Origin: Elusimicrobiaceae bacterium
GTDB lineage: Bacteria > Elusimicrobiota > Elusimicrobia > Elusimicrobiales > Elusimicrobiaceae
Reading direction: 5' to 3'
Assembly: GCA_017525025.1 (NCBI GenBank)
Contig: JAFXUJ010000009.1
Location: 51,948 to 115,947, forward strand
Length of the DNA stretch: 64,000 nt
Part shown: piece by piece, positions 51,433 to 60,677 of the stretch
How positions within the stretch are numbered: the first letter of the stretch is position 1
Layout: every line of letters begins with the position of its first letter
The notes under the pieces: generated by a model
What the model saw: only the letters and a program-made list of their open reading frames with translations
Database searches by the model: none
Told to the model about the DNA's origin: nothing
Program-made: the position numbers and the translations under genes

Positions 51433-51462
51433 TTTTAGTGTCCAAAAGCAGGTAGATTAGCA
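51433..51462 (+). repeat. Boundary repeat, diverged copy
   Basis: TTTTAGTGTCCAAAAGCAGGTAGATTAGCA, similar to the 56655 and 57953 copies. Confidence 0.7.
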
Positions 51463-51612
51463 CTATTTCAAAATGTCAATTTCTTTCTGTAAATTTGCGC
51501 AGGATTTGCCAGCCCATTTTGGGGCTTTTTTTCTTCATAAATCGGTTAGAATATTGTACAATGATGTATAAGTGAGATTTTTGAATAAAGATTTGAATTT
51601 ATCAATAAAAAC

Positions 51613-54600
51613 ATGCGTAAAGATTTTAAACAAATTATAAGCGAAGTGAAAAGGTTATTAGCCCTACTGATAACTGTCCAAATGATTTGTTGGCACAGTG
51701 TGAATATTGCGTGGGGTGCGGAATATGATTCGCTTATAGATGCAATACAAGCAACAACTACCCCGCGGACATATACACTTGATGGAAATGAAACCTCTTC
51801 AACTGCCCTGGGAAATATCGGAGGATGGAATTCTGTTCTTACCATAGATGGCGGAGAGGGGCATTACGGAATAAATAATACTTCAACGGCAACCGATACA
51901 AGACTTTTCGTAGGCAAAAACCAGACGTTTTACTTGCAGAATCTTGGAACTTATACCACAACTACTTCCAGCTCCATTGTTGAAGGAGTGGATATCATTA
52001 CGGAAGTTACCGTAGGAAATTCCATAAATAATTTTGGAAAAACGAGTGACAGAGTGGGATTTCTCAGATCTGCGGGAACTTCACACATTTCTAATTCTGT
52101 CTTTTATAATAACCGCGGTAGATATGGTGTAGTACAAAATAGAGAACAAGGAACCATGTCCATAACAGGTTCTGTTTTTGCTAATAACAATGTGCCACAG
52201 GGTGCTGTTCATAACGATGGCACAAATAGAATGACTGAAATATCGGATTCTATATTTTATAATAATACCGCCGTCACCCAGACTTCCGGGGATACCGACT
52301 TGCGAAATCGCAGCGCCAGTGCTATTTTTAATAAACCAGATAGGACGATAGACATCATATCCGGTTCTCAATTTATCGGTAATACTACCATCTCTACTGC
52401 CGATGGCCAGCAAACCGGAACAATATATAATAATGGCGGAACAATTGGCGAAATATCAAATTCTGTATTTTATAATAATAGTAATCAAAGCGGATCTGTC
52501 ATACATAATGTAAGCAGCACTACAGCCGCAGGTGTATTAAACAACGGTACAATAACAACGATATCCAATTCAGTATTTGTTCAAAATACTTCTGTAGGAT
52601 CCGGTGCCGCAATATCCAATACAAGTGATTCAATCATAGGAGCCATAACCGATTCTCTCTTTATTTCTAATACCGCGACAGCCAACGGCGGTGCAATTTA
52701 TAATGAAGGTGATATTGCTGCATTAGCAGGTACTTTTACATCTAACAGTGCCGACTCGAACGGCGGTGCAATTTATAATACCGGAACGGTAACAATCACA
52801 TCATCCGATGGTGCTAATACAACCTTCACCGGTAATACGGCAAACGGAGTTTCAAATGCTTTGTATAATACCGGAACTGTGAATATGAATGCCGGGACGG
52901 ATAGTTCAATTATTTTTAATGATAAAATAACAGGTTCCGACGGTGTAATTACTCTTGGTGGGGCGGGTGTAGTTGAATTTAACGAAACCGTAGCGGGAAA
53001 TGGCGTTACATTAAATTCGGGCACACTCAAATTAGGCTTGGCGGACAGTTTGCAAGATGCCACGAGCTTTACTGTAAACGGCGGAACATTAGATTTGCGT
53101 AACAACGAAGTCCATACTTATCAATTGGGCCAAAGCACCTCCATCGGCGGTACAGTGGGATTGGCCATAGATGCTGATTTGGCCGGTGCAACTCCGGTAG
53201 CTGATATGATTACAGCGGCCGGTGAAGTTACCGGTTCGGGCAGTTTTGTTTTTTCAGCAGCTAATATCAATGTCATGAGTTATGCCGATGAACAAACTCC
53301 TTTTTGGGTACAGGTAACGGATGAGAATTTACGAAATTATGCCGGCTTAGGTTCAAATGCCAATATACATATAACAGATAACGAACCGGAAGGTTACTTT
53401 ATAACCTATGAAACATCACACGATGGTGTAGACGCCGGTTTCCTTAGATTTGAACATGATACATTAGCTAATGCGATAGCGTCGTCCGTTGAAGAAAAAG
53501 CCTATACCATGGGAACGGATGAGACCTTAATCAATACTCCGGCGCTAGGTGGTGATTCGCTAACTGTAAACGGAAACAGCCAAGGTCATTCAATAACAGG
53601 TAATGGCGGTGCAGGGTTAGCGGTCGGTAATGGTCAAACCTTATCGTTAAATAATATAGGTGTAGATAGTGAAGGCAATGTAACCGGAGCCGGACTTAAC
53701 AATTTTAATACTGCCGTATCAAATGATGCAAACGGAACCGCCAATATCTATCATGCGACGTTTAGTAATAATACTACGGATATTGATAATAATGGCGTAG
53801 CCAATATGTCCGGAACCGTTATATTTGATAATGCCCAAGGAGACGGTACCTTAAATATAGCAAAAGATAGCGACGGAAATTCCTCTGCCGTAACGGTGAA
53901 TAATAGTTTAGAACAAAACAACATCAATGTAGAAAGCGCAAATACGTTGACCAATGATAACGCGACCATTACCGTGAACGCTGCCTTGGATAACGCCGGA
54001 ACGATAGCCGGTACCGGGACGAGTGTGCTTGTAATCAATGGGAATTCCGGCAATAGCGGTACGATTGACCAAGGAATATTGGTAACCGCCGCGAGCGCCA
54101 CATTAACCAATACTGGCGCCCTCACCGTGCAAACTACATTAACAAACAGTGGGACGATTGCAAATAATAACGATTTAACGTTAGCGGGTAGTGATATAAC
54201 TAATGCCGGAACGGTAAACGGCACCGGAACGACTTATGTCACAGGCAATGTAACCAATAAAGGAACCATTTCTCAGAACGGAATACAAATATCTAGCGGT
54301 CAAACGTTAACCAATGATAGTGGCGCTACTATTACTACAACGGATACAGCTGCCGATGCGGGATTCCAAAACAACGGAACCGTATTAAATGATGGCGCTA
54401 TTTCGGTTGCCGGCGGTAGCAATGCGGGCTCCATTACCGGAAACGGTACATTTGCAAACAGCGGAGATTTCACAAATAGTGATTATATTGAGCAGGATAC
54501 TGTTACTAATAGCGGAACAATTACTACCGATTCAGAGAATTTAGTAGCTGCGAACGGAATTACCAATAACGGTACTTTGGTATATAATGCCGGAAGTCAA

Positions 54601-56595
54601 ACCGTTAGTGATATTACGGGTGATGGTAGTGATAACTCCCATATTGAGTTAAGAACAAATGATTCGTTTACCATTGATAATACGATTGCAAACACGTCTA
54701 TTGACTTGTATGATTCAACCTTGACATTCGGTAGCAACGGCAATATTTCGGGAATCACAGCGTTGAATGTCAACGGCGGCGGGCTGAATGTATTAGACGG
54801 AACCATTACCTCTACCGATCTTGGAACCGTTAATTTGAATGATGAGGCCACCTTGGCAATAGATTTTGACTTGAGTACTTTAACTTCTGATTCATTTAAT
54901 GCGGTTGTTAATAATAATGGCGGCCTGTTCAATATAAATCAAGTTAATCTGCTTGGCACAATAACTGCGGATTATGTCAACATCAATCTAGGGGATGCAA
55001 CCGGCTTAGGACAGGAAAATGTAACTTCTGCAACCATTGAGTTGCCCTCCGTTATGACTCCTATTCGCAGAATTAACGGACGCATAGAAGATGGTTGGTT
55101 AACCTACGAAGGGACCGGCACGGATATAGATGATTTCAATCCGGCCGTGTTGGCCACTCCGGTGGTTGCACAAGTCGGCATGCACACCATGCTCAATAAT
55201 ACATTCCACCATGCTTATGAGCATGCGGATTGGTACACCAAATTTTCTGCGCAAGAAAGAGCCGCTATACTGGACGGAAACCGCAATGCAACGAATAATG
55301 TTGCGAATGGCGGCTATCAGGATAAGTCAAATTTGCGCGATTCATATAAAGCCAATGCGGCCATATGGTTTAAATCGTATGCTACTTTTGAGGATATCCC
55401 ATTACGGCCGGGACCGAAAGTGGATGTCAATTCGTACGGGTCCTTGGTAGGAGTTGATTCCGATTTCCAAGATTGGGGGCGCGAATGGTATGGTGTGACC
55501 ACCGGTTATGTCGGATATAACGGCGCGCAGATTGATTATCCGGAGGTTAAAGCCTCTATGGATGGGGGATTGGTTGGTGTAACCCAAACCTTCTACAAAA
55601 ACAATTTTTGGACAGGAGTTACCGCCAATGTGGGGGCCGATTTTGTAAACACACGAACCATGTACGGGCGTGAAAATTCCTCCCTATTTTCAACGGGGTT
55701 AGGTACTCAAACCGGTTATAATATTGAGTTGGGTGCCGGCAACTTTATCCTTCAGCCTATTTGGTTCATGAACTATGGTATGATCAAGACGTTTGATTAT
55801 ACGAATGCTGCCGGGGTTAAAATTGATCCCAAGCCGTTACATACCATCCAATTGAATCCAACCTTGAGACTCGTAGGGAATGTAAAGGGCTGGCAACCGT
55901 ATGCCTCTGTCGGAATGGTTTGGAACTTAATGGATAAGACCGATGTAATGGCAGATTCTGTAAAATTGCCGGAGATAAGCGTTAAACCGTATGTGCGCTA
56001 TGATGTGGGGGTACAAAAAGCCATTGGCAACAGATTTACCGGATTTATACAAGCCGCGGGCTATAATGGCGGAAGAAACGGCATAAATATCGCCGGTGGT
56101 TTGCGTTGGGCTTTTGGCAAAGGCGGTAAAAATACGGAAACGGTTAAAGGGAATAATGGTTCCGGGAGTGCTATAGAAAGTCAAAATAACCTAGAACCGG
56201 AAACCGTAGAACCGGTTGTAGCCGTGCAGACGCCCGATGTAAAACAAGAAACCGGCAAGGCCGAGACACCTGTTGTAAATGTACAAAAAACCGGTAATTC
56301 GCAACCAAATGGTAAAACAGAAGTACCGGCCGTTAATACGCAGGATCTTGCCAAAGAACAAAAAACTGCTCAAACCGAAGGAGCGGTTGCCGAGGTCCAG
56401 CCTATTGATAAAGGCCACATAGATACTCCGGCCGAAGAATCGGTTACAAATGCGCCGAACGTTAAGGATGTTCGGAAAGAGGCGCAATCTGAAAAATCCG
56501 GCGCAAAGACGGAAGAAAATAATAATTTAGCAATGGCTATTGCTATTGGTGCCGTTCTGCTACTTCTTGTATTCTTGCTTACCCGCAAATGGTAA
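51613..56595 (+). CDS. Large autotransporter-like surface protein with Pmp-type GGAI repeats, putative beta-barrel, and C-terminal linker plus TM anchor
   Basis: Signal peptide; Asn/Thr/Gly-rich beta-helix repeats (F..N.....GGAIYN); barrel-like region ending GGLRWAF (56115); then 159 aa ending LAMAIAIGAVLLLLVFLL-TRKW. Confidence 0.8.
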   Translation: MRKDFKQIISEVKRLLALLITVQMICWHSVNIAWGAEYDSLIDAIQATTTPRTYTLDGNETSSTALGNIGGWNSVLTIDGGEGHYGINNTSTATDTRLFVGKNQTFYLQNLGTYTTTTSSSIVEGVDIITEVTVGNSINNFGKTSDRVGFLRSAGTSHISNSVFYNNRGRYGVVQNREQGTMSITGSVFANNNVPQGAVHNDGTNRMTEISDSIFYNNTAVTQTSGDTDLRNRSASAIFNKPDRTIDIISGSQFIGNTTISTADGQQTGTIYNNGGTIGEISNSVFYNNSNQSGSVIHNVSSTTAAGVLNNGTITTISNSVFVQNTSVGSGAAISNTSDSIIGAITDSLFISNTATANGGAIYNEGDIAALAGTFTSNSADSNGGAIYNTGTVTITSSDGANTTFTGNTANGVSNALYNTGTVNMNAGTDSSIIFNDKITGSDGVITLGGAGVVEFNETVAGNGVTLNSGTLKLGLADSLQDATSFTVNGGTLDLRNNEVHTYQLGQSTSIGGTVGLAIDADLAGATPVADMITAAGEVTGSGSFVFSAANINVMSYADEQTPFWVQVTDENLRNYAGLGSNANIHITDNEPEGYFITYETSHDGVDAGFLRFEHDTLANAIASSVEEKAYTMGTDETLINTPALGGDSLTVNGNSQGHSITGNGGAGLAVGNGQTLSLNNIGVDSEGNVTGAGLNNFNTAVSNDANGTANIYHATFSNNTTDIDNNGVANMSGTVIFDNAQGDGTLNIAKDSDGNSSAVTVNNSLEQNNINVESANTLTNDNATITVNAALDNAGTIAGTGTSVLVINGNSGNSGTIDQGILVTAASATLTNTGALTVQTTLTNSGTIANNNDLTLAGSDITNAGTVNGTGTTYVTGNVTNKGTISQNGIQISSGQTLTNDSGATITTTDTAADAGFQNNGTVLNDGAISVAGGSNAGSITGNGTFANSGDFTNSDYIEQDTVTNSGTITTDSENLVAANGITNNGTLVYNAGSQTVSDITGDGSDNSHIELRTNDSFTIDNTIANTSIDLYDSTLTFGSNGNISGITALNVNGGGLNVLDGTITSTDLGTVNLNDEATLAIDFDLSTLTSDSFNAVVNNNGGLFNINQVNLLGTITADYVNINLGDATGLGQENVTSATIELPSVMTPIRRINGRIEDGWLTYEGTGTDIDDFNPAVLATPVVAQVGMHTMLNNTFHHAYEHADWYTKFSAQERAAILDGNRNATNNVANGGYQDKSNLRDSYKANAAIWFKSYATFEDIPLRPGPKVDVNSYGSLVGVDSDFQDWGREWYGVTTGYVGYNGAQIDYPEVKASMDGGLVGVTQTFYKNNFWTGVTANVGADFVNTRTMYGRENSSLFSTGLGTQTGYNIELGAGNFILQPIWFMNYGMIKTFDYTNAAGVKIDPKPLHTIQLNPTLRLVGNVKGWQPYASVGMVWNLMDKTDVMADSVKLPEISVKPYVRYDVGVQKAIGNRFTGFIQAAGYNGGRNGINIAGGLRWAFGKGGKNTETVKGNNGSGSAIESQNNLEPETVEPVVAVQTPDVKQETGKAETPVVNVQKTGNSQPNGKTEVPAVNTQDLAKEQKTAQTEGAVAEVQPIDKGHIDTPAEESVTNAPNVKDVRKEAQSEKSGAKTEENNNLAMAIAIGAVLLLLVFLLTRKW

Positions 56596-56628
56596 AATAA
56601 GTGCGGTAGATATCTATTTGGACGCAAT

Positions 56629-56662
56629 AAAAAGCCCCTTACTTGAGTGTAGGGGGCTTTTT
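56629..56662 (+). terminator. Terminator after the autotransporter-like gene
   Basis: AAAAAGCCCCTTAC / GTAGGGGGCTTTTT; part of a longer imperfect palindrome at 56607-56680. Confidence 0.85.
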
Positions 56663-56691
56663 AGTGTCTAAAAGTATGTAGGTTGGCATAA
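56655..56691 (+). repeat. Boundary repeat copy A (37 bp)
   Basis: GGCTTTTTAGTGTCTAAAAGTATGTAGGTTGGCATAA; 35/37 identical to 57953-57989. Confidence 0.9.
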
Positions 56692-56741
56692 AAAAATGGG
56701 CATTGTATCGTATAATTGCTACAATGGTTCAGGAGGAATAT

Positions 56742-57167
56742 ATGACAGTATCTACGAACTACATAGAACGCAACCTAAAAATTATGAAACAATTTGAGCA
56801 AGTTATCAATACTGCCGACGAAACAAAAGCCGAGCAGTTAATTGCGCCGGACGCCCCGTTTATCACGCCTGCCAGCCCTACGCCTTTGTATGGCGGAAAA
56901 GGATACCTGTCTTTGGTGCATTGGCTACGTAAGTCGTTCCCGGATGTGCAGTGGTACGCATTAGACATGGTAGCACAGGATAACAAGGTGGCCGTTTTGT
57001 GGGAGTGCACAGGCACGCACAAGGGCGACTTTATGGGTATCCCCGCTACACAAAAGAGTTTTAAAACTACGTTTATGAACTTTTATTATTTCAACGAGAA
57101 AGGTCAAATTACCAAAGATATCGCCGGCGTTGGTATGATTGGTATTATCCAAGCCCTAAAAGCATAA
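56742..57167 (+). CDS. SnoaL-like ester cyclase family protein
   Basis: SD AGGAGG; R..FPD.......MVA..NKVAV.W...GTH.G.F.GIPAT. Confidence 0.88.
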   Translation: MTVSTNYIERNLKIMKQFEQVINTADETKAEQLIAPDAPFITPASPTPLYGGKGYLSLVHWLRKSFPDVQWYALDMVAQDNKVAVLWECTGTHKGDFMGIPATQKSFKTTFMNFYYFNEKGQITKDIAGVGMIGIIQALKA

Positions 57168-57188
57168 GCGTGTCTGTTTAGAAACTTT

Positions 57189-57218
57189 AGCCCCTTACAT
57201 ATCGTAAGGGGCTTTTTT
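57189..57218. terminator. Bidirectional terminator
   Basis: AGCCCCTTAC / GTAAGGGGCT perfect stem between convergent genes. Confidence 0.82.
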
Positions 57219-57248
57219 AGTTATTATATTCATATTTTACGGTAGATA

Positions 57249-57890
57249 TTACATTCTTTTTACTAACGCTACTTCCATATCAAACACTTGTTGACAATGC
57301 TTTGGGAAGATATTTTCATGACGCAGTTTCTTCGCTTCCGGATTGAACATAGACCACTCCCAATCCAGTTTGGAATAATCTTTTAATTGTAACGTGTCTC
57401 CGCTTACAAACACTTCCGTAGGCCCCACAAAACGGTTGAATGTTTGTTGATAATTGTGGATAAGGGATGTGTAACTATCATCCGGTGCATTGCTCGTCAT
57501 CAGTAGCAACACGGGAATCACATTTTGATTGCAACAAATATTTTCCGTATTATAGGTTAAATTTTGAAAAATCAAACGCTCATAGAGCGCCCGAAAAGAC
57601 GCCGTTAATTCGCTCAAATAATTAGGAGAACCGATAATAAGCCCATCCGCTTCTCTAATTGCATCAAGTATAGGGGTCAATCCGTCCCGGCAAATACAGT
57701 GGCCTTTATTTTTTTCGCGCTTGCATCCAAAGCAGGAAATACATCCTGTATATTTTTCTAATCGGAATAAATCAAATTTTTCTACATTTGCCCCAGCGGA
57801 CGTGGCGCCTTTAATCGCTTCGTTTATCAGCGTATCCGTATTCCAGCCTTTTCTCGGCCCTGCATTTACCGCTACAATTTTCTTATTCAT
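57249..57890 (-). CDS. Flavodoxin-like / iron-sulfur flavoprotein (NADPH-dependent FMN reductase family)
   Basis: N.GPRKGWNT, GC..CFGCK......C...D, GSPNY. Confidence 0.88.
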   Translation of the reverse strand: MNKKIVAVNAGPRKGWNTDTLINEAIKGATSAGANVEKFDLFRLEKYTGCISCFGCKREKNKGHCICRDGLTPILDAIREADGLIIGSPNYLSELTASFRALYERLIFQNLTYNTENICCNQNVIPVLLLMTSNAPDDSYTSLIHNYQQTFNRFVGPTEVFVSGDTLQLKDYSKLDWEWSMFNPEAKKLRHENIFPKHCQQVFDMEVALVKRM

Positions 57891-57952
57891 TTCTGTTCTC
57901 CTTCGTGATCTATATTTCTATTTTAACAAATATCAGAATAAAGGATTAAAAT

Positions 57953-57989
57953 GGCTTTATAGTGTCCAAAAGTATGTAGGTTGGCATAA
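57953..57989 (+). repeat. Boundary repeat copy B (37 bp)
   Basis: GGCTTTATAGTGTCCAAAAGTATGTAGGTTGGCATAA; partial TTATAGTGTCCAA again at 58035-58047. Confidence 0.9.
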
Positions 57990-58089
57990 TAAAAGCCGCA
58001 AGGATTTTGCAGGACAACAAAGAAAAGCGTAGCGTTATAGTGTCCAAGCTGTGACTCGTAGTAGGAACCCATACTATCATCATAAAAAA

Positions 58090-58275
58090 TGATATAATAC
58101 ATATACAAAACATATGCTGAAAAATAACGCATTCCTTGTTTTGATTCCCAACTTAAAAATCTTATGGGATTGTTCCATAGGGATATGTAGTAGTTCGCGT
58201 CAGCATGATATATTAATTGATAACAATTTATGTAGTATTTGAACGAGCGGGCACCTATTTGGGTGCTCTTTTTTT
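58090..58275 (+). promoter_or_regulatory. Extended -10 promoter plus ~180-nt leader ending in a terminator-like hairpin (candidate attenuator/riboswitch)
   Basis: TGATATAAT at 58090-58098; GGGCACC/GGTGCTC stem (58249-58268) followed by 7 T just before SD GGAG and ATG 58286. Confidence 0.55.
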
Positions 58276-58285
58276 GGAGAAAAAA

Positions 58286-59992
58286 ATGAAAACATTAGTA
58301 TTAACATTTAATTTGCTTGGTGGCCTAGGGGTCTTCCTGCTCGGCATCAAAATGATGAGCGACGGGTTGCAGAAAGCCGCCGGAGACCGTTTGCGACGGA
58401 TTATTGCCCGTGCTACTACCAACCGTTTTACGGCCACGTTATCGGGCATTTTAGCCACCTCTATTATCCAGTCTTCTTCCGCCACTACCGTTATGGTCGT
58501 GGGGTTTGCCAGTGCGGGATTACTTAGTTTATCCCAATCACTCGGCGTTATCTTTGGGGCCAACATTGGTACTACTACGACGGCATGGTTGATTAGTATC
58601 CTTGGCTTTAAAGTCAACATTTCTGTATTTGCCATGCCCATGATCGGTATTGGGTTTTTCTCACAATTTATTAAAAAATGGCCCTTGGCACGCCGTATCG
58701 GTGAATCTATGGTGGGTTTCGGGTTGCTGTTCTTAGGATTATCCCTTATACAAGAATCGTTACCCGATATGCAAAACTCCTCTGCCGTCGTGGAATGGAT
58801 TGTCAAATTTCGGCCCGATACGTTACTCTCTTTATTAGGTGTAATCGGTGTAGGAACGGTACTTACGGTTCTGCTCCAATCCTCCAGCGCGGTCATGGCG
58901 GTTACGCTTACCTGCGCCGCTAAAGGCCTCATTGACTATCCTACTGCTTGTGCTCTTGTGTTGGGCGAAAATATCGGTACCACTATTACCGCCAACATTG
59001 CTGCTATCGGGGCCCCACGTATTGCTAAACGTGCCGCCTTGGGGCATGTGCTTTTCAACGTGCTCGGGGTAGTGTGGGCCATTGCGTTTTTTCATCCATT
59101 TTTAAGACTGCTTGACTGTTTTGTGCCCGGCTCTACCGAAGGCACCAGCTCCGAAGTACTTTTGACTAGCATTCCTTATCATTTAGCGGCGTTTCACACT
59201 ACGTTTAACATTATAAATACAAGTATCATGCTTATGTTTATAAAACCGTTTGAAAAACTGATTCTATTCCTCTTGCCTATCCAACGTAGCGAGCAAAACC
59301 AAACCGAACTGCGCTATTTGAAAGTGGGTGTTACCACCACGCCGGAATTATTCATTGCTGCGGCAAGTAAAGAAATAGATATCATGGCCGGGATGGCCGG
59401 TGCTATTACCTCCAAGTTGCTGCATGCGCTGAAAGCCGATTCCAACGCTTTGTTTGAAGCGGTTGTACAAGACATATACGCTCAAGAAAAAGCCAGCGAT
59501 ACATTAGAATATAAAATCACAGAGTTCTTAAAGAATTTGACACACGAACAACTTTCGCGCGATATGGTAAATGAAATCATGCGTCTGTTAGACCAAACAA
59601 CTTATTTAGAAAAAATAGCCGACCATGGAGAACGGATTGCCAAATTACTAACTAAAGCTCACGATATGAAAGCGTTTAATGCGCAAGATTATGAGCGATT
59701 GGAAACCATTGGACAACAAGTGCGTAAAATTATTAAACACATGCGTTCAACTATTTTACCTACCCTACCATTAGACAAAGCAAAAGTTTTGGAATATGCT
59801 CGCAAACAGGAAAACATATTAAACGATATGCGCCATTCTTTGCGGGAAGAAAAAACTTCTAACGATTTTACCAAGAATCAAATCTCTCCCGCGGGGCTCA
59901 CCCTTTATGTGGATATTCTAACCAGTTTTGAGAAAATGGGCGATTACGCGTTAAATGTCGTGCAATCCAACACAGACCAACCTAAACATTAA
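58286..59992 (+). CDS. Na/Pi cotransporter family protein with C-terminal PhoU-like domain
   Basis: GGLG.FL.G.K.MS.GLQ, IQSSSATTVM.VGF, GANIGTT.TA, LQSSSA, LG.NIGTT.TA, E.IADH, EKMGDYA.N. Confidence 0.92.
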   Translation: MKTLVLTFNLLGGLGVFLLGIKMMSDGLQKAAGDRLRRIIARATTNRFTATLSGILATSIIQSSSATTVMVVGFASAGLLSLSQSLGVIFGANIGTTTTAWLISILGFKVNISVFAMPMIGIGFFSQFIKKWPLARRIGESMVGFGLLFLGLSLIQESLPDMQNSSAVVEWIVKFRPDTLLSLLGVIGVGTVLTVLLQSSSAVMAVTLTCAAKGLIDYPTACALVLGENIGTTITANIAAIGAPRIAKRAALGHVLFNVLGVVWAIAFFHPFLRLLDCFVPGSTEGTSSEVLLTSIPYHLAAFHTTFNIINTSIMLMFIKPFEKLILFLLPIQRSEQNQTELRYLKVGVTTTPELFIAAASKEIDIMAGMAGAITSKLLHALKADSNALFEAVVQDIYAQEKASDTLEYKITEFLKNLTHEQLSRDMVNEIMRLLDQTTYLEKIADHGERIAKLLTKAHDMKAFNAQDYERLETIGQQVRKIIKHMRSTILPTLPLDKAKVLEYARKQENILNDMRHSLREEKTSNDFTKNQISPAGLTLYVDILTSFEKMGDYALNVVQSNTDQPKH

Positions 59993-60004
59993 CGGGTAAA
60001 CCGC

Positions 60005-60565
60005 ATGAAAAAACCGCTGGTCTTTTTTATCCAACTTTTCCTTTTGGGATGTACCGCGTCAAATAACCCTGCTGTGAACATTTCTGCGTCACCGTCGTCT
60101 GATTGGGTAGTTCAACAGGCGCGAGTCAAGGAAGATGCACCGCATAGTACAAAAATCATTACTTTTCCGCTTCTGGTAGCGCGGCATTTACCTAATTATC
60201 AAGACGTTACAGGCATAAGTGCTGTGCGGGCCCCGGTAGTACCTTATGGAATAGCTGTTATTCAAAAACCAAACACACCGGATATGTATGTTGTGTACGT
60301 AAACGAAAATAACGGTTTTCTTGAAGCGGCACGAGCCGAAAACGGGAACAAACTGCCTATCATTTCTATTGATTCGACCGTTGATGATGGCAACGCCTCC
60401 GCCACTATTCCGGGAAACGTTGCAATTCAAATTAACTTGGCCTTTTTAGAAAAGAACAGACACCGGAATCCACAAATCAAAGTTTTTGGCAAACAAGGTC
60501 CCTTTGCCATTTTCCTGCCGGATTACTATATAGACGCTATTCTCAAATACATGTACCAACGCTAA
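60005..60565 (+). CDS. Hypothetical lipoprotein
   Basis: Lipobox LLGC at residue 16; no recognisable domain. Confidence 0.65.
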   Translation: MKKPLVFFIQLFLLGCTASNNPAVNISASPSSDWVVQQARVKEDAPHSTKIITFPLLVARHLPNYQDVTGISAVRAPVVPYGIAVIQKPNTPDMYVVYVNENNGFLEAARAENGNKLPIISIDSTVDDGNASATIPGNVAIQINLAFLEKNRHRNPQIKVFGKQGPFAIFLPDYYIDAILKYMYQR

Positions 60566-60646
60566 AAAACCACGCACTTATATGGGGCTTTTTATAGTGT
60601 CGGCGCCAGGGGAATGCACTATACATCGGGTAATTTAATTTTTAAC

Positions 60647-60677
60647 TTGACTTGGAGTTTACTCCAACTGATACAAT
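60647..60677 (+). promoter_or_regulatory. MerR-type promoter/operator (copy 2)
   Basis: TTGACT - 19 bp - TACAAT with perfect dyad TTGGAGT-TT-ACTCCAA; two differences from 45113-45143. Confidence 0.88.

Follow-up and report, generated by a model that had tools for sequence, protein, structure and literature searches.

Why should one sequence of about 35 bp recur between modules of unrelated genes? The question arises in a genome of the Elusimicrobiaceae (G000), in a window that comprises the whole analysed stretch of 64,000 nucleotides, where an earlier note had read this direct repeat as the possible core sites of a site-specific recombinase that inserts or excises accessory cassettes.

The B1 box and its copies

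The repeat, referred to here as B1, is a 35-bp box of the form TATAGTGTCCAAA-AGTATGTAG-right arm, with three co-oriented copies in the window, at 51434, 56660 and 57958. The motif by which it was initially described, TAGTGTCYAAAAGYANGTAG, matches the window three times, always on the + strand, where shuffled sequence gives an expectation of 0.02; likewise, the two copies reported as nearly identical, A (56655-56691) and B (57953-57989), show 2 mismatches over 37 positions. A genome-wide search, carried out with a position-weight matrix (PWM) derived from copies in relatives, revealed a real, localised repeat: the genome (1.55 Mb) holds four B1 copies, all on the same strand and in a single 18-kb stretch, the fourth being located at C9:121456, outside the window. 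The one additional match was a weak one of 17 bits on C7, and two shuffles of 416 kb gave zero matches. The features of the window are the following:

51434..51468, + strand: B1, diverged (TTTAGTGTCCAAAAGCAGGTAGATTAGCACTATTT), 29.8 bits in the PWM scan, between the 5' end of the vat-like gene (- strand) and the module of the 1660-aa gene
51511..51533, + strand: terminator-like hairpin, between the 51434 B1 and the promoter of the 1660-aa gene
56595..56629, - strand: degenerate B1-like box in inverse orientation, at the 3' end of the 1660-aa gene, 17/22 matches to left arm and centre
56630..56661, + strand: intrinsic terminator hairpin of the 1660-aa gene (inverted repeat)
56660..56694, + strand: B1 copy A, motif match and PWM score of 45.5 bits
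56684..57222, + strand: SnoaL cassette (B1 right arm, promoter, gene, terminator), 89.7% nucleotide identity to G003
56697..56725, + strand: SnoaL promoter TGGGCA-17-TACAAT, directly after copy A
57215..57245, + strand: degenerate sequence (TTTAGTTATTATATTCATATTTTACGG) where the SnoaL and FMN-reductase cassettes meet, with a weak resemblance, seen by eye, to the B2 tail (16/19)
57229..57994, - strand: FMN-reductase cassette (- strand gene, upstream region, copy B), 91.5% nucleotide identity to L050
57958..57992, + strand: B1 copy B, consensus form, motif match and PWM score of 57.3 bits
58036..58055, + strand: B2, ending after about 20 nt, by sequence match to a conserved second box type in relatives
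60593..60623, + strand: diverged B1 (TATAGTGTC-N14-GCACTATA), 5' of the MerR-type promoter
60647..60677, + strand: MerR-type promoter TTGACT-19-TACAAT of the Fe-ADH operon, by sequence

The diverged copy noticed near 51433 corresponds to the B1 at 51434, and two sequences described as partial copies had to be redefined. That at 58035-58047 is a real conserved sequence, but it represents the start of a different box type, B2, cut short; the distance from B1 to B2 is 78 nt in the window versus 79-80 nt in relatives. That at 60584-60601 is related to B1, its actual extent being 60593-60623: the arms TATAGTG...CACTATA are retained around a different centre that is shorter by 4 nt, and the box lies 24 nt before the MerR-type promoter, the same promoter that is preceded by an intact B1 in L024, L048 and L061. 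The 74-bp palindrome proposed at copy A consists of the inverted degenerate B1 (56595-56629, where the 13-mer core was found on the - strand with two mismatches), followed by the terminator hairpin and then by copy A.

The best-conserved positions of B1 are those of the left arm and the centre, and each left-arm variant was found with each right-arm variant, four combinations in all. Right arms are mostly degenerate, with at most 5 of 11 complementary positions in 38 of 58 and with no compensatory change, while the palindromic variants fit a 14-7-14 arrangement (TATAGTGTCCAAAA-GTATGTA-AAATGGACACTATA). A hairpin or attC-like structure was rejected because the complementarity of the arms is not conserved. 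Dispersal as a REP/RAYT or MITE element was also discarded, given the restriction of the copies to one 18-kb stretch plus one box at a tRNA-Met, and a hairpin that is not conserved. Regarding a structured RNA, RNAalifold did not support a fold of the B1-B2 element: it gave -9 kcal/mol over 160 columns, with two covarying pairs that are located in the variable spacer. Rfam detected nothing on the repeats between 51 and 61 kb at a permissive E-value, and at the gathering score it detected only tRNAs and one SAM riboswitch in six related loci.

Module borders and reassorted flanks

Comparison with relatives agrees with the view that the repeats border modules of differing history, with homology breaking at the boxes. 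The homology of the window with G003, L050 and G021/G020 begins or ends at or within B1. In the case of the SnoaL cassette, homology with G003 starts inside B1, and the neighbouring vat and NaPi genes are only 71-73% identical; the homology of the FMN-reductase cassette to L050 (Ca. Avelusimicrobium) stops at the right edge of B1. An identity of approx. 90%, as opposed to 71-73%, shows that these two cassettes are younger than their neighbours. Base composition gives no clear foreign signature (38-49% GC versus 45% in the genome). For the 51434 copy, the box and about 70 nt downstream are homologous to a copy in G044, and the upstream sequence is without homology. Finally, the interval between vat and SnoaL contains a single box in G003, versus a box, the 1660-aa gene and a second box in G000.

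The same behaviour was observed over 75 distinct B1 copies: a given left flank meets different right flanks, and conversely, and homology breaks sharply at the box edges. Multiple partners were found for 8 of 10 left-flank clusters and for all 12 right-flank clusters. Within the species, presence/absence polymorphism was not detected among five assemblies, which are identical in gene order (two proteins with exact matches, on 3 and 6 contigs, have syntenic surroundings in every case); therefore, any exchange must be rare.

These patterns raise the question of whether B1 could itself be a crossover site of the lox/FRT/dif type, with arms of 13-14 bp and an asymmetric centre of 7-9 bp, (A)GTATGTA(G), at which a recombinase acting in trans moves circular cassettes in and out. 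The strong conservation of left arm and centre, the identical centre of copies A and B, the occurrence of the four arm combinations, the breaks of homology at either edge of the box (for the SnoaL cassette, within B1), and the box on each side of the G000 insertion relative to G003 are all in line with this idea; an asymmetric centre would also account for the strict co-orientation of B1. Nevertheless, the right arm is degenerate, arms of 11 bp leave a spacer of 13 bp, longer than known tyrosine recombinases accept, a difficulty that only arms of 13-14 bp would remove, and the centre of the 51434 copy is different (AGCAGGTAG). Moreover, the five assemblies of the species show no excision or empty-site polymorphism, and no dedicated recombinase was identified. 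We find a crossover within B1 doubtful.

Promoters next to the boxes

The B1-promoter-RBS-ATG unit found at SnoaL is also present ahead of many cassettes in relatives. It had been argued that the orientation of the repeats speaks against a promoter element; this argument is weak, since a + strand gene follows every copy in the window, copy A being placed directly before TGGGCA-17-TACAAT. B1 might then be an operator or promoter-proximal element recognised by a regulator of accessory genes for stress and detoxification, found at borders merely because every module brings its own regulated promoter, and shuffled by ordinary recombination. In agreement with this, 16 of 58 copies have a gene in the same direction within 150 nt, many copies show (G)TGGGCA-17-TACAAT or a MerR-type promoter 20-30 nt downstream, and the heptad GTGNCCA recurs in phase, overlapping the -35 element. 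However, 27 of the 58 copies precede B2 and a non-coding module, and another 9 precede an antisense gene, e.g., at the 3' end of vat in G003, G044 and G050. In addition, because the hairpin at 51511..51533 intervenes, the 51434 copy is not the promoter of the gene downstream. An operator would also not be expected to point toward tRNA genes or to be linked to tRNA-end repeats and integrases, as described below, and we regard this explanation as unlikely.

Distribution in the genus

The exact 13-mer core was found in 55 of the 96 genomes of the genus, whereas the reversed control was almost never found. In the 37 contigs with at least two copies (106 copies in total), orientation is uniform within every contig. 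The 21-mer is restricted to Elusimicrobi* records, with the exception of one probable mis-binned contig, and a search for a phage origin did not find it in viral_contigs; the B1 family is confined to gut Elusimicrobiaceae. The box sequence and the 79-80-bp spacing between B1 and B2 are conserved although the sequence of the spacer varies, and the positions of the boxes are invariant across species whose flanks and spacers have diverged to 70-75% identity or are unalignable. It could be thought that B1 has no function today and that its copies are neutral remains of duplications at the locus, in line with the decaying copies at 60593, 56595-56629, 58036 (truncated) and C9:121456; but the invariant positions, the constant B1-B2 spacing and the co-orientation of the 106 copies argue against it, and we consider this idea very improbable.

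Islands at tRNA genes and their integrase

In G020, G050, G056, G072 and G016, arrays of boxes adjoin the tRNA-Arg(GCG) gene and are oriented toward its 3' end. In relatives, an island closes with B1 and, 79-80 bp further on, B2; a module of about 300 nt and a terminator follow, and last come 10-12 nt from the tRNA 3' end. Comparison of G050 with G056 revealed a 3.7-kb restriction-modification island inserted with duplication of GCGCCCAACA, the junction in G056 being uninterrupted; the G050 island carries its own boxes beside its own copy of the tRNA end. Both sides of the tRNA-end core carry boxes, i.e., B1, B2, B3 and B4 on one side, and B5b or box 6 on the other. In G000 the layout of box and tRNA-end remnant seen at tRNA-Arg(GCG) is present at a tRNA-Met; tRNA-Arg(GCG) was not found in the 17 contigs of this assembly, which contains only a 12-nt remnant, outside the window. 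The proposal that the repeats are core sites of a site-specific recombinase holds in part: the module borders are tied to the att regions of tRNA-Arg islands, but the demonstrable crossover is the 3' end of the tRNA (GCGCCCAACA). The boxes might also be thought of as degenerate versions of the tRNA end, since GTGTCCAAAAG matches the tRNA 3' end GCGCCCAACAG at 8 of 11 positions; this match is suggestive but, allowing for offsets, not significant.

In agreement with the earlier note, no recombinase is encoded in the window. A tyrosine integrase is found about 5.9 kb past its end (C9:121873-122949, - strand), located directly after B2, the module and a tRNA-end remnant; it begins 127 nt past this remnant, which lies at C9:121734. 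An integrase is also found beside the tRNA-end remnant in G044, G089, G065 and G083, and the arrays of relatives usually contain a lambda-like tyrosine integrase. In at least 14 genomes, contigs that bear boxes also encode a close homologue of this integrase, and boxes are present in 20 of the 21 genomes that have a homologue with at least 55% identity. In the AlphaFold2 model of the integrase (pLDDT 83), strands at residues 10-14, 17-23 and 29-33 are followed by a helix at 39-59, and Foldseek aligned the model over its full length with full-length lambda integrase (1z1b, 352-360 columns); from this modelling, the protein is predicted to have an N-terminal arm-binding-like domain, a core-binding domain and a catalytic domain. 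Pfam gave nothing significant on the N-terminus, only a weak DUF6538 (E = 0.015). An IntI-type integrase was not recognised, the scores being 71.3 bits for TIGR02249 (cut-off 265) and 39.9 for NF011946 (cut-off 435).

We propose, with a probability of roughly 55%, that B1 is a genus-specific, putative protein-recognition box in the att arms of tRNA-Arg(GCG) islands with lambda-type tyrosine integrases. The box family, which shares the core TATAGTGTCC, would make up the att arms of integrative islands directed at the 3' end of tRNA-Arg(GCG), with at least one other tRNA also serving as a target. Islands would accumulate at the tRNA, with one border formed by B1, B2, the module, the terminator and the tRNA end, and the other by B5b or box 6; solo B1 copies would divide cassettes of one or two genes, within and between islands. 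The window would represent a rearranged and partly decayed stretch of such an array, with cassettes joined at B1, namely the 1660-aa surface protein, SnoaL, the FMN reductase, and a truncated B1-B2 end fused to the NaPi gene. The integrase may bind the boxes through its N-terminal arm-binding domain, and exchange at B1 may be catalysed or helped by the integrase machinery of the islands acting in trans. Several facts count against this explanation: the G000 assembly is without tRNA-Arg(GCG), boxes are still present in 30 of the 65 genomes without a close integrase, and solo B1 copies with sharp right edges are unexplained by simple accretion of islands followed by decay. Furthermore, the crossover of whole islands is demonstrable in the tRNA end, outside B1, and homologous recombination between 35-bp repeats could produce the same patterns.

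A more speculative possibility, about which we are rather sceptical, is that genes are captured at two levels, with islands acquired at tRNA-Arg(GCG) and, inside them, self-promoted cassettes of one or two genes that enter, leave and pass between species through site-specific recombination at the 35-bp B1. If this were true, the system would be an integron-like platform in which a double-stranded, lox-like B1 and lambda-type integrases replace IntI and attC.

Comparison with known systems

Repeated site-specific integration at one tRNA 3' end is known from the tandem accretion of ICESt1/ICESt3 and their CIMEs (PMC5704250, PMC5812530). The arrays described here resemble CIMEs in that older elements are pushed inward, units without an integrase lie between att sites, and att remnants are scattered; they differ in that the conspicuous repeat is a 35-bp att-arm box and not a piece of tRNA, and in that this box is also found alone, with sharp edges, between cassettes of one or two genes. 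The tycheposons of Prochlorococcus, tyrosine-recombinase elements at particular tRNA genes (bioRxiv 10.1101/2020.12.28.424599), similarly show successive integrations, scattered partial tRNAs and degenerated elements, and a cargo of 'plug-in' cassettes. In contrast, a replication module was not seen here, and that work does not describe cassette borders formed by arm boxes.

Small, mostly single-gene modules with short co-recognised sites that are shuffled between replicons or species are also typical of integrons and of the pdif modules of Acinetobacter plasmids. Nevertheless, attC is recognised by structure whereas B1 is defined by sequence and its palindrome is not conserved; the cassettes bring their own promoters and IntI is absent; and the orientation of pdif sites alternates whereas B1 copies are co-oriented. 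As in the attP of lambda, copies of a motif of about 10 bp lie to either side of the core with fixed spacing, but the candidate attP would exceed 500 bp and boxes are also found far from any core site. The lambda arm consensus, (C/A)AGTCACTAT, resembles the right arm of B1 (GGTCACTATA), a lead rather than evidence. As far as the literature was searched, neither the site sequence nor such arrays in this lineage (Elusimicrobiaceae) have been described, and nothing relevant was found on Elusimicrobium islands.

Implications for the gut Elusimicrobiaceae

The system is a local, previously uncharacterised version of a known mode of gene collection. If B1 were the crossover site, it would constitute a compact site for recombination, natural in origin and defined in orientation, that already has a candidate cognate integrase. 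In practical terms, TATAGTGTCCAAA is a sequence tag with which the flexible region can be found in any MAG of this group. For the biology of these bacteria, the system explains how gut Elusimicrobiaceae with small genomes gather and swap accessory genes, the exchanged cargo including detoxification enzymes under MerR-type promoters, restriction-modification systems, acetyltransferase and phosphoethanolamine-transferase-like genes, and surface proteins.

Repeat copies and the box family

The ~35-bp repeat that the earlier note had recognized from the sequence alone is borne out: between copy A (56655-56691) and copy B (57953-57989) there are 2 mismatches in 37 positions, and a claimed diverged copy is confirmed at 51434-51468. 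In the window, the degenerate motif proposed for it matches these three sites only, each time on the + strand, where 0.02 matches were expected. When the whole source assembly G000 (1.55 Mb in 17 contigs, the window being C9:51948-115947) was searched with a 30-mer and with a position-weight matrix (0 matches on shuffled DNA), a single additional copy of this box, B1, was revealed at position 121456 of the same contig (C9:121456), 5.5 kb past the window end. As its copies are not spread around the genome, B1 was rejected as a dispersed genomic repeat.

Region 57953-58056 shows 73-97% identity in other species of the genus, exceeding that of the surrounding genes, and its alignment contains two invariant boxes, B1 and B2, with a variable spacer between them. 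B1 consists of TATAGTGTCCAAA-AGTATGTAG-right arm, the right arm being either GGTCACTATA, which gives a 35-bp palindrome, or GGCATAATAA; B2 is TATAGTGTCCAAACTGTGCCCAGTATATTCATAGTTTTCG. B1 and B2 are spaced 79-80 bp apart in at least 15 genomes, compared with 78 bp in the window. The supposed partial copy at 58036 is B2, cut off after ~20 nt. Of 96 genomes of the genus, 55 contain the exact 13-mer TATAGTGTCCAAA, and its reversed control is almost never present; copies of the 13-mer lie on one strand per contig in all 37 contigs with at least two (106 copies). A 21-mer probe is absent from viral contigs in a database search, and its only carriers are MAGs of Elusimicrobiaceae, Elusimicrobium and Ca. 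Avelusimicrobium, save one contig that is probably mis-binned.

Boxes as module borders

Several lines of evidence identify the boxes as module borders. In the related genome G003, vat (-) and SnoaL (+) adjoin with a single diverged box between them; at the same position in G000 the 1660-aa gene lies between two boxes. Identity to G003 is 89.7% across the SnoaL module (56684-57222), where homology starts inside B1; the FMN-reductase module (57229-57994) matches L050 (Ca. Avelusimicrobium) at 91.5% identity, with homology stopping at the right edge of B1. The vat and NaPi genes beside these modules show 71-73% identity. Genomes G020 and G021 have 1.2 kb in common at 94% identity; this stretch starts with the first B1 base, and the DNA to its left is unrelated. 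In G050 the final ~105 nt of a hydrolase gene of the MBL fold (metallo-beta-lactamase fold) survive together with B1, at 97% identity to G020. The flanks of 75 distinct B1 copies form 45 left and 39 right clusters; 8 of the 10 multi-member left clusters and 12 of the 12 multi-member right clusters have several partners.

The cargo between boxes consists of accessory genes, i.e., ArsR with a permease, nitroreductase, aldo-keto reductases, MBL-fold hydrolase, EptA-like transferase, restriction-modification systems and surface proteins. The 1660-aa protein (51613-56595), earlier called an autotransporter, has no Pfam match and, in NCBIfam, only a weak match to polymorphic-outer-membrane-protein repeats; its C-terminus shows a hydrophobic helix and a basic tail. 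A SAM riboswitch was observed inside a cassette array of G020 (L011 7262-7348), upstream of a 108-aa ORF and beside a Dcm/restriction-enzyme cassette. Two G021 contigs, C1 and C2 (L012, L013), have their ends within 100-270 nt of such an element (B1-B2), with large serine recombinase genes in the vicinity; the repeated module probably breaks assemblies, and arrays would therefore be under-represented in MAGs.

Docking at tRNA genes and the integrase

In relatives, the box arrays adjoin tRNA-Arg(GCG) and are oriented toward its 3' end. Their recurrent unit starts with B1 and B2, continues with a non-coding module of ~300 nt and a terminator, and closes with 10-12 nt from the 3' end of the tRNA. 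The ~300-nt module is conserved across species (e.g., L011 9830-10260, L014 3383-3712 and, in G000, C9:121535-121733) and holds 3-4 copies of (T)CGACGAG(A/G)A, with a strong bidirectional terminator at its end; it has no Rfam match, and could carry further protein-binding sites or encode RNA. Comparison of G050 with G056 revealed a 3.7-kb restriction-modification island in G050; its insertion, precisely at the tRNA end, is accompanied by a duplication of GCGCCCAACA. This island brings its own boxes (B4, B3) beside its own copy of the tRNA end; other boxes, B5b or the palindromic 'box 6', lie on the opposite side of the tRNA-end core, so that the TATAGTGTCC motif is present in both arms of the islands' would-be attP.

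Array features on contig C9 of G000 beyond the window end
C9:117666, B5b, preceded by a degenerate tRNA end
C9:121456, half B1
C9:121535, B2, then a short module with a terminator after it
C9:121734, GTGCGCCCAACA
C9:121873-122949, - strand, tyrosine integrase of 350-358 aa

G000 keeps just the last 12 nt of tRNA-Arg(GCG), at C9:121734. The gene was not found in the whole assembly, though relatives have one, and families F5 and F6, the conserved genes flanking it in relatives, are also missing; this reflects either a gap in the assembly or true loss. About 3.3-4.6 kb past the window end, a 426-aa ORF (C9:119254-120534, equal to L017 4255-5535) is an in-frame chimera of an HlyD-type N-terminus (aa 38-180) and a type I restriction R-subunit C-terminal domain (T1RH-like_C, aa 175-422). 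The ORF has the appearance of a deletion scar joining an ABC-efflux operon to a restriction-modification island; the remaining operon genes are present in G044 and G020 and missing from G000. At C14:160847-161167, G000 has another, tiny att scar of this box system: a B2-like box (TATAGTGACCAAAAAGTGACCACC...CATAGTTTAC) and, after it, 16 nt left over from the 3' end of tRNA-Met, 185 nt upstream of the real tRNA-Met(CAT).

The integrase gene thus lies just outside the window. Homologues (at least 55% identity) share a contig with boxes in at least 14 genomes and often directly adjoin them (G044, G089, G065, G083). Boxes occur in 20 of 21 genomes with such a homologue versus 30 of 65 without any homologue of ~45% identity or more, which is not an independent statistic because the genomes are related. 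In an AlphaFold2 model (48-sequence alignment, pLDDT 83), a three-stranded sheet and a helix at the N-terminus precede the core-binding and catalytic domains, and with Foldseek the whole chain aligns with full-length lambda integrase. A heterobivalent integrase of this kind would predict arm-type sites, for which the boxes are obvious candidates.

The proposal that the repeats are cassette recombination sites is thus partly supported: boxes do border modules, but the sole demonstrable crossover, that of the G050/G056 comparison, lies in the tRNA end. The conserved asymmetric centre of B1 and the co-orientation of its copies would also fit a lox-like crossover site. Same-species assemblies, when compared, showed no polymorphism. 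An attC-like or REP-like hairpin was ruled out since the palindrome is not conserved (at most 5 of 11 complementary positions in 38 of 58 copies); B1 showed no Rfam family match and no covariation.

Relation of B1 to promoters

A conserved promoter, (G)TGGGCA-17-TACAAT, often lies 20-30 nt after B1, followed by a ribosome-binding site and ATG, as seen for copy A before SnoaL (TGGGCA-17-TACAAT). A MerR-type promoter follows other copies, such as the diverged one at 60593-60623, which lies ahead of the Fe-ADH operon. A regulatory role for B1 is therefore possible. A role as promoter element only was ruled out, since B1 is followed by B2 and the non-coding module in 27 of 58 copies, by an antisense gene in 9 of 58, and by a terminator at 51434. 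In other species, a MerR-type promoter (TTGACTTAGAGTTTACTC...TACAAT) was observed directly after B1 in many array cassettes (L024, L038, L048, L061). As this promoter is common to many box-bordered cassettes, and to window positions 60593-60677, members of the MerR regulon travel as cassettes; the window's first MerR promoter (~45113) is not preceded by a box.

Comparison with known systems

Unlike an integron, the Elusimicrobiaceae system has neither IntI nor a structure-based attC, and B1 departs from pdif modules in site orientation, all copies on a contig being co-oriented. It works like the tandem accretion of integrative elements and integrase-less CIMEs at tRNA genes (PMC5704250, PMC5812530), and resembles tycheposon-built islands (10.1101/2020.12.28.424599); in contrast with these systems, the Elusimicrobiaceae arrays have an additional layer of modularity, delimited by an arm-derived 35-bp box.
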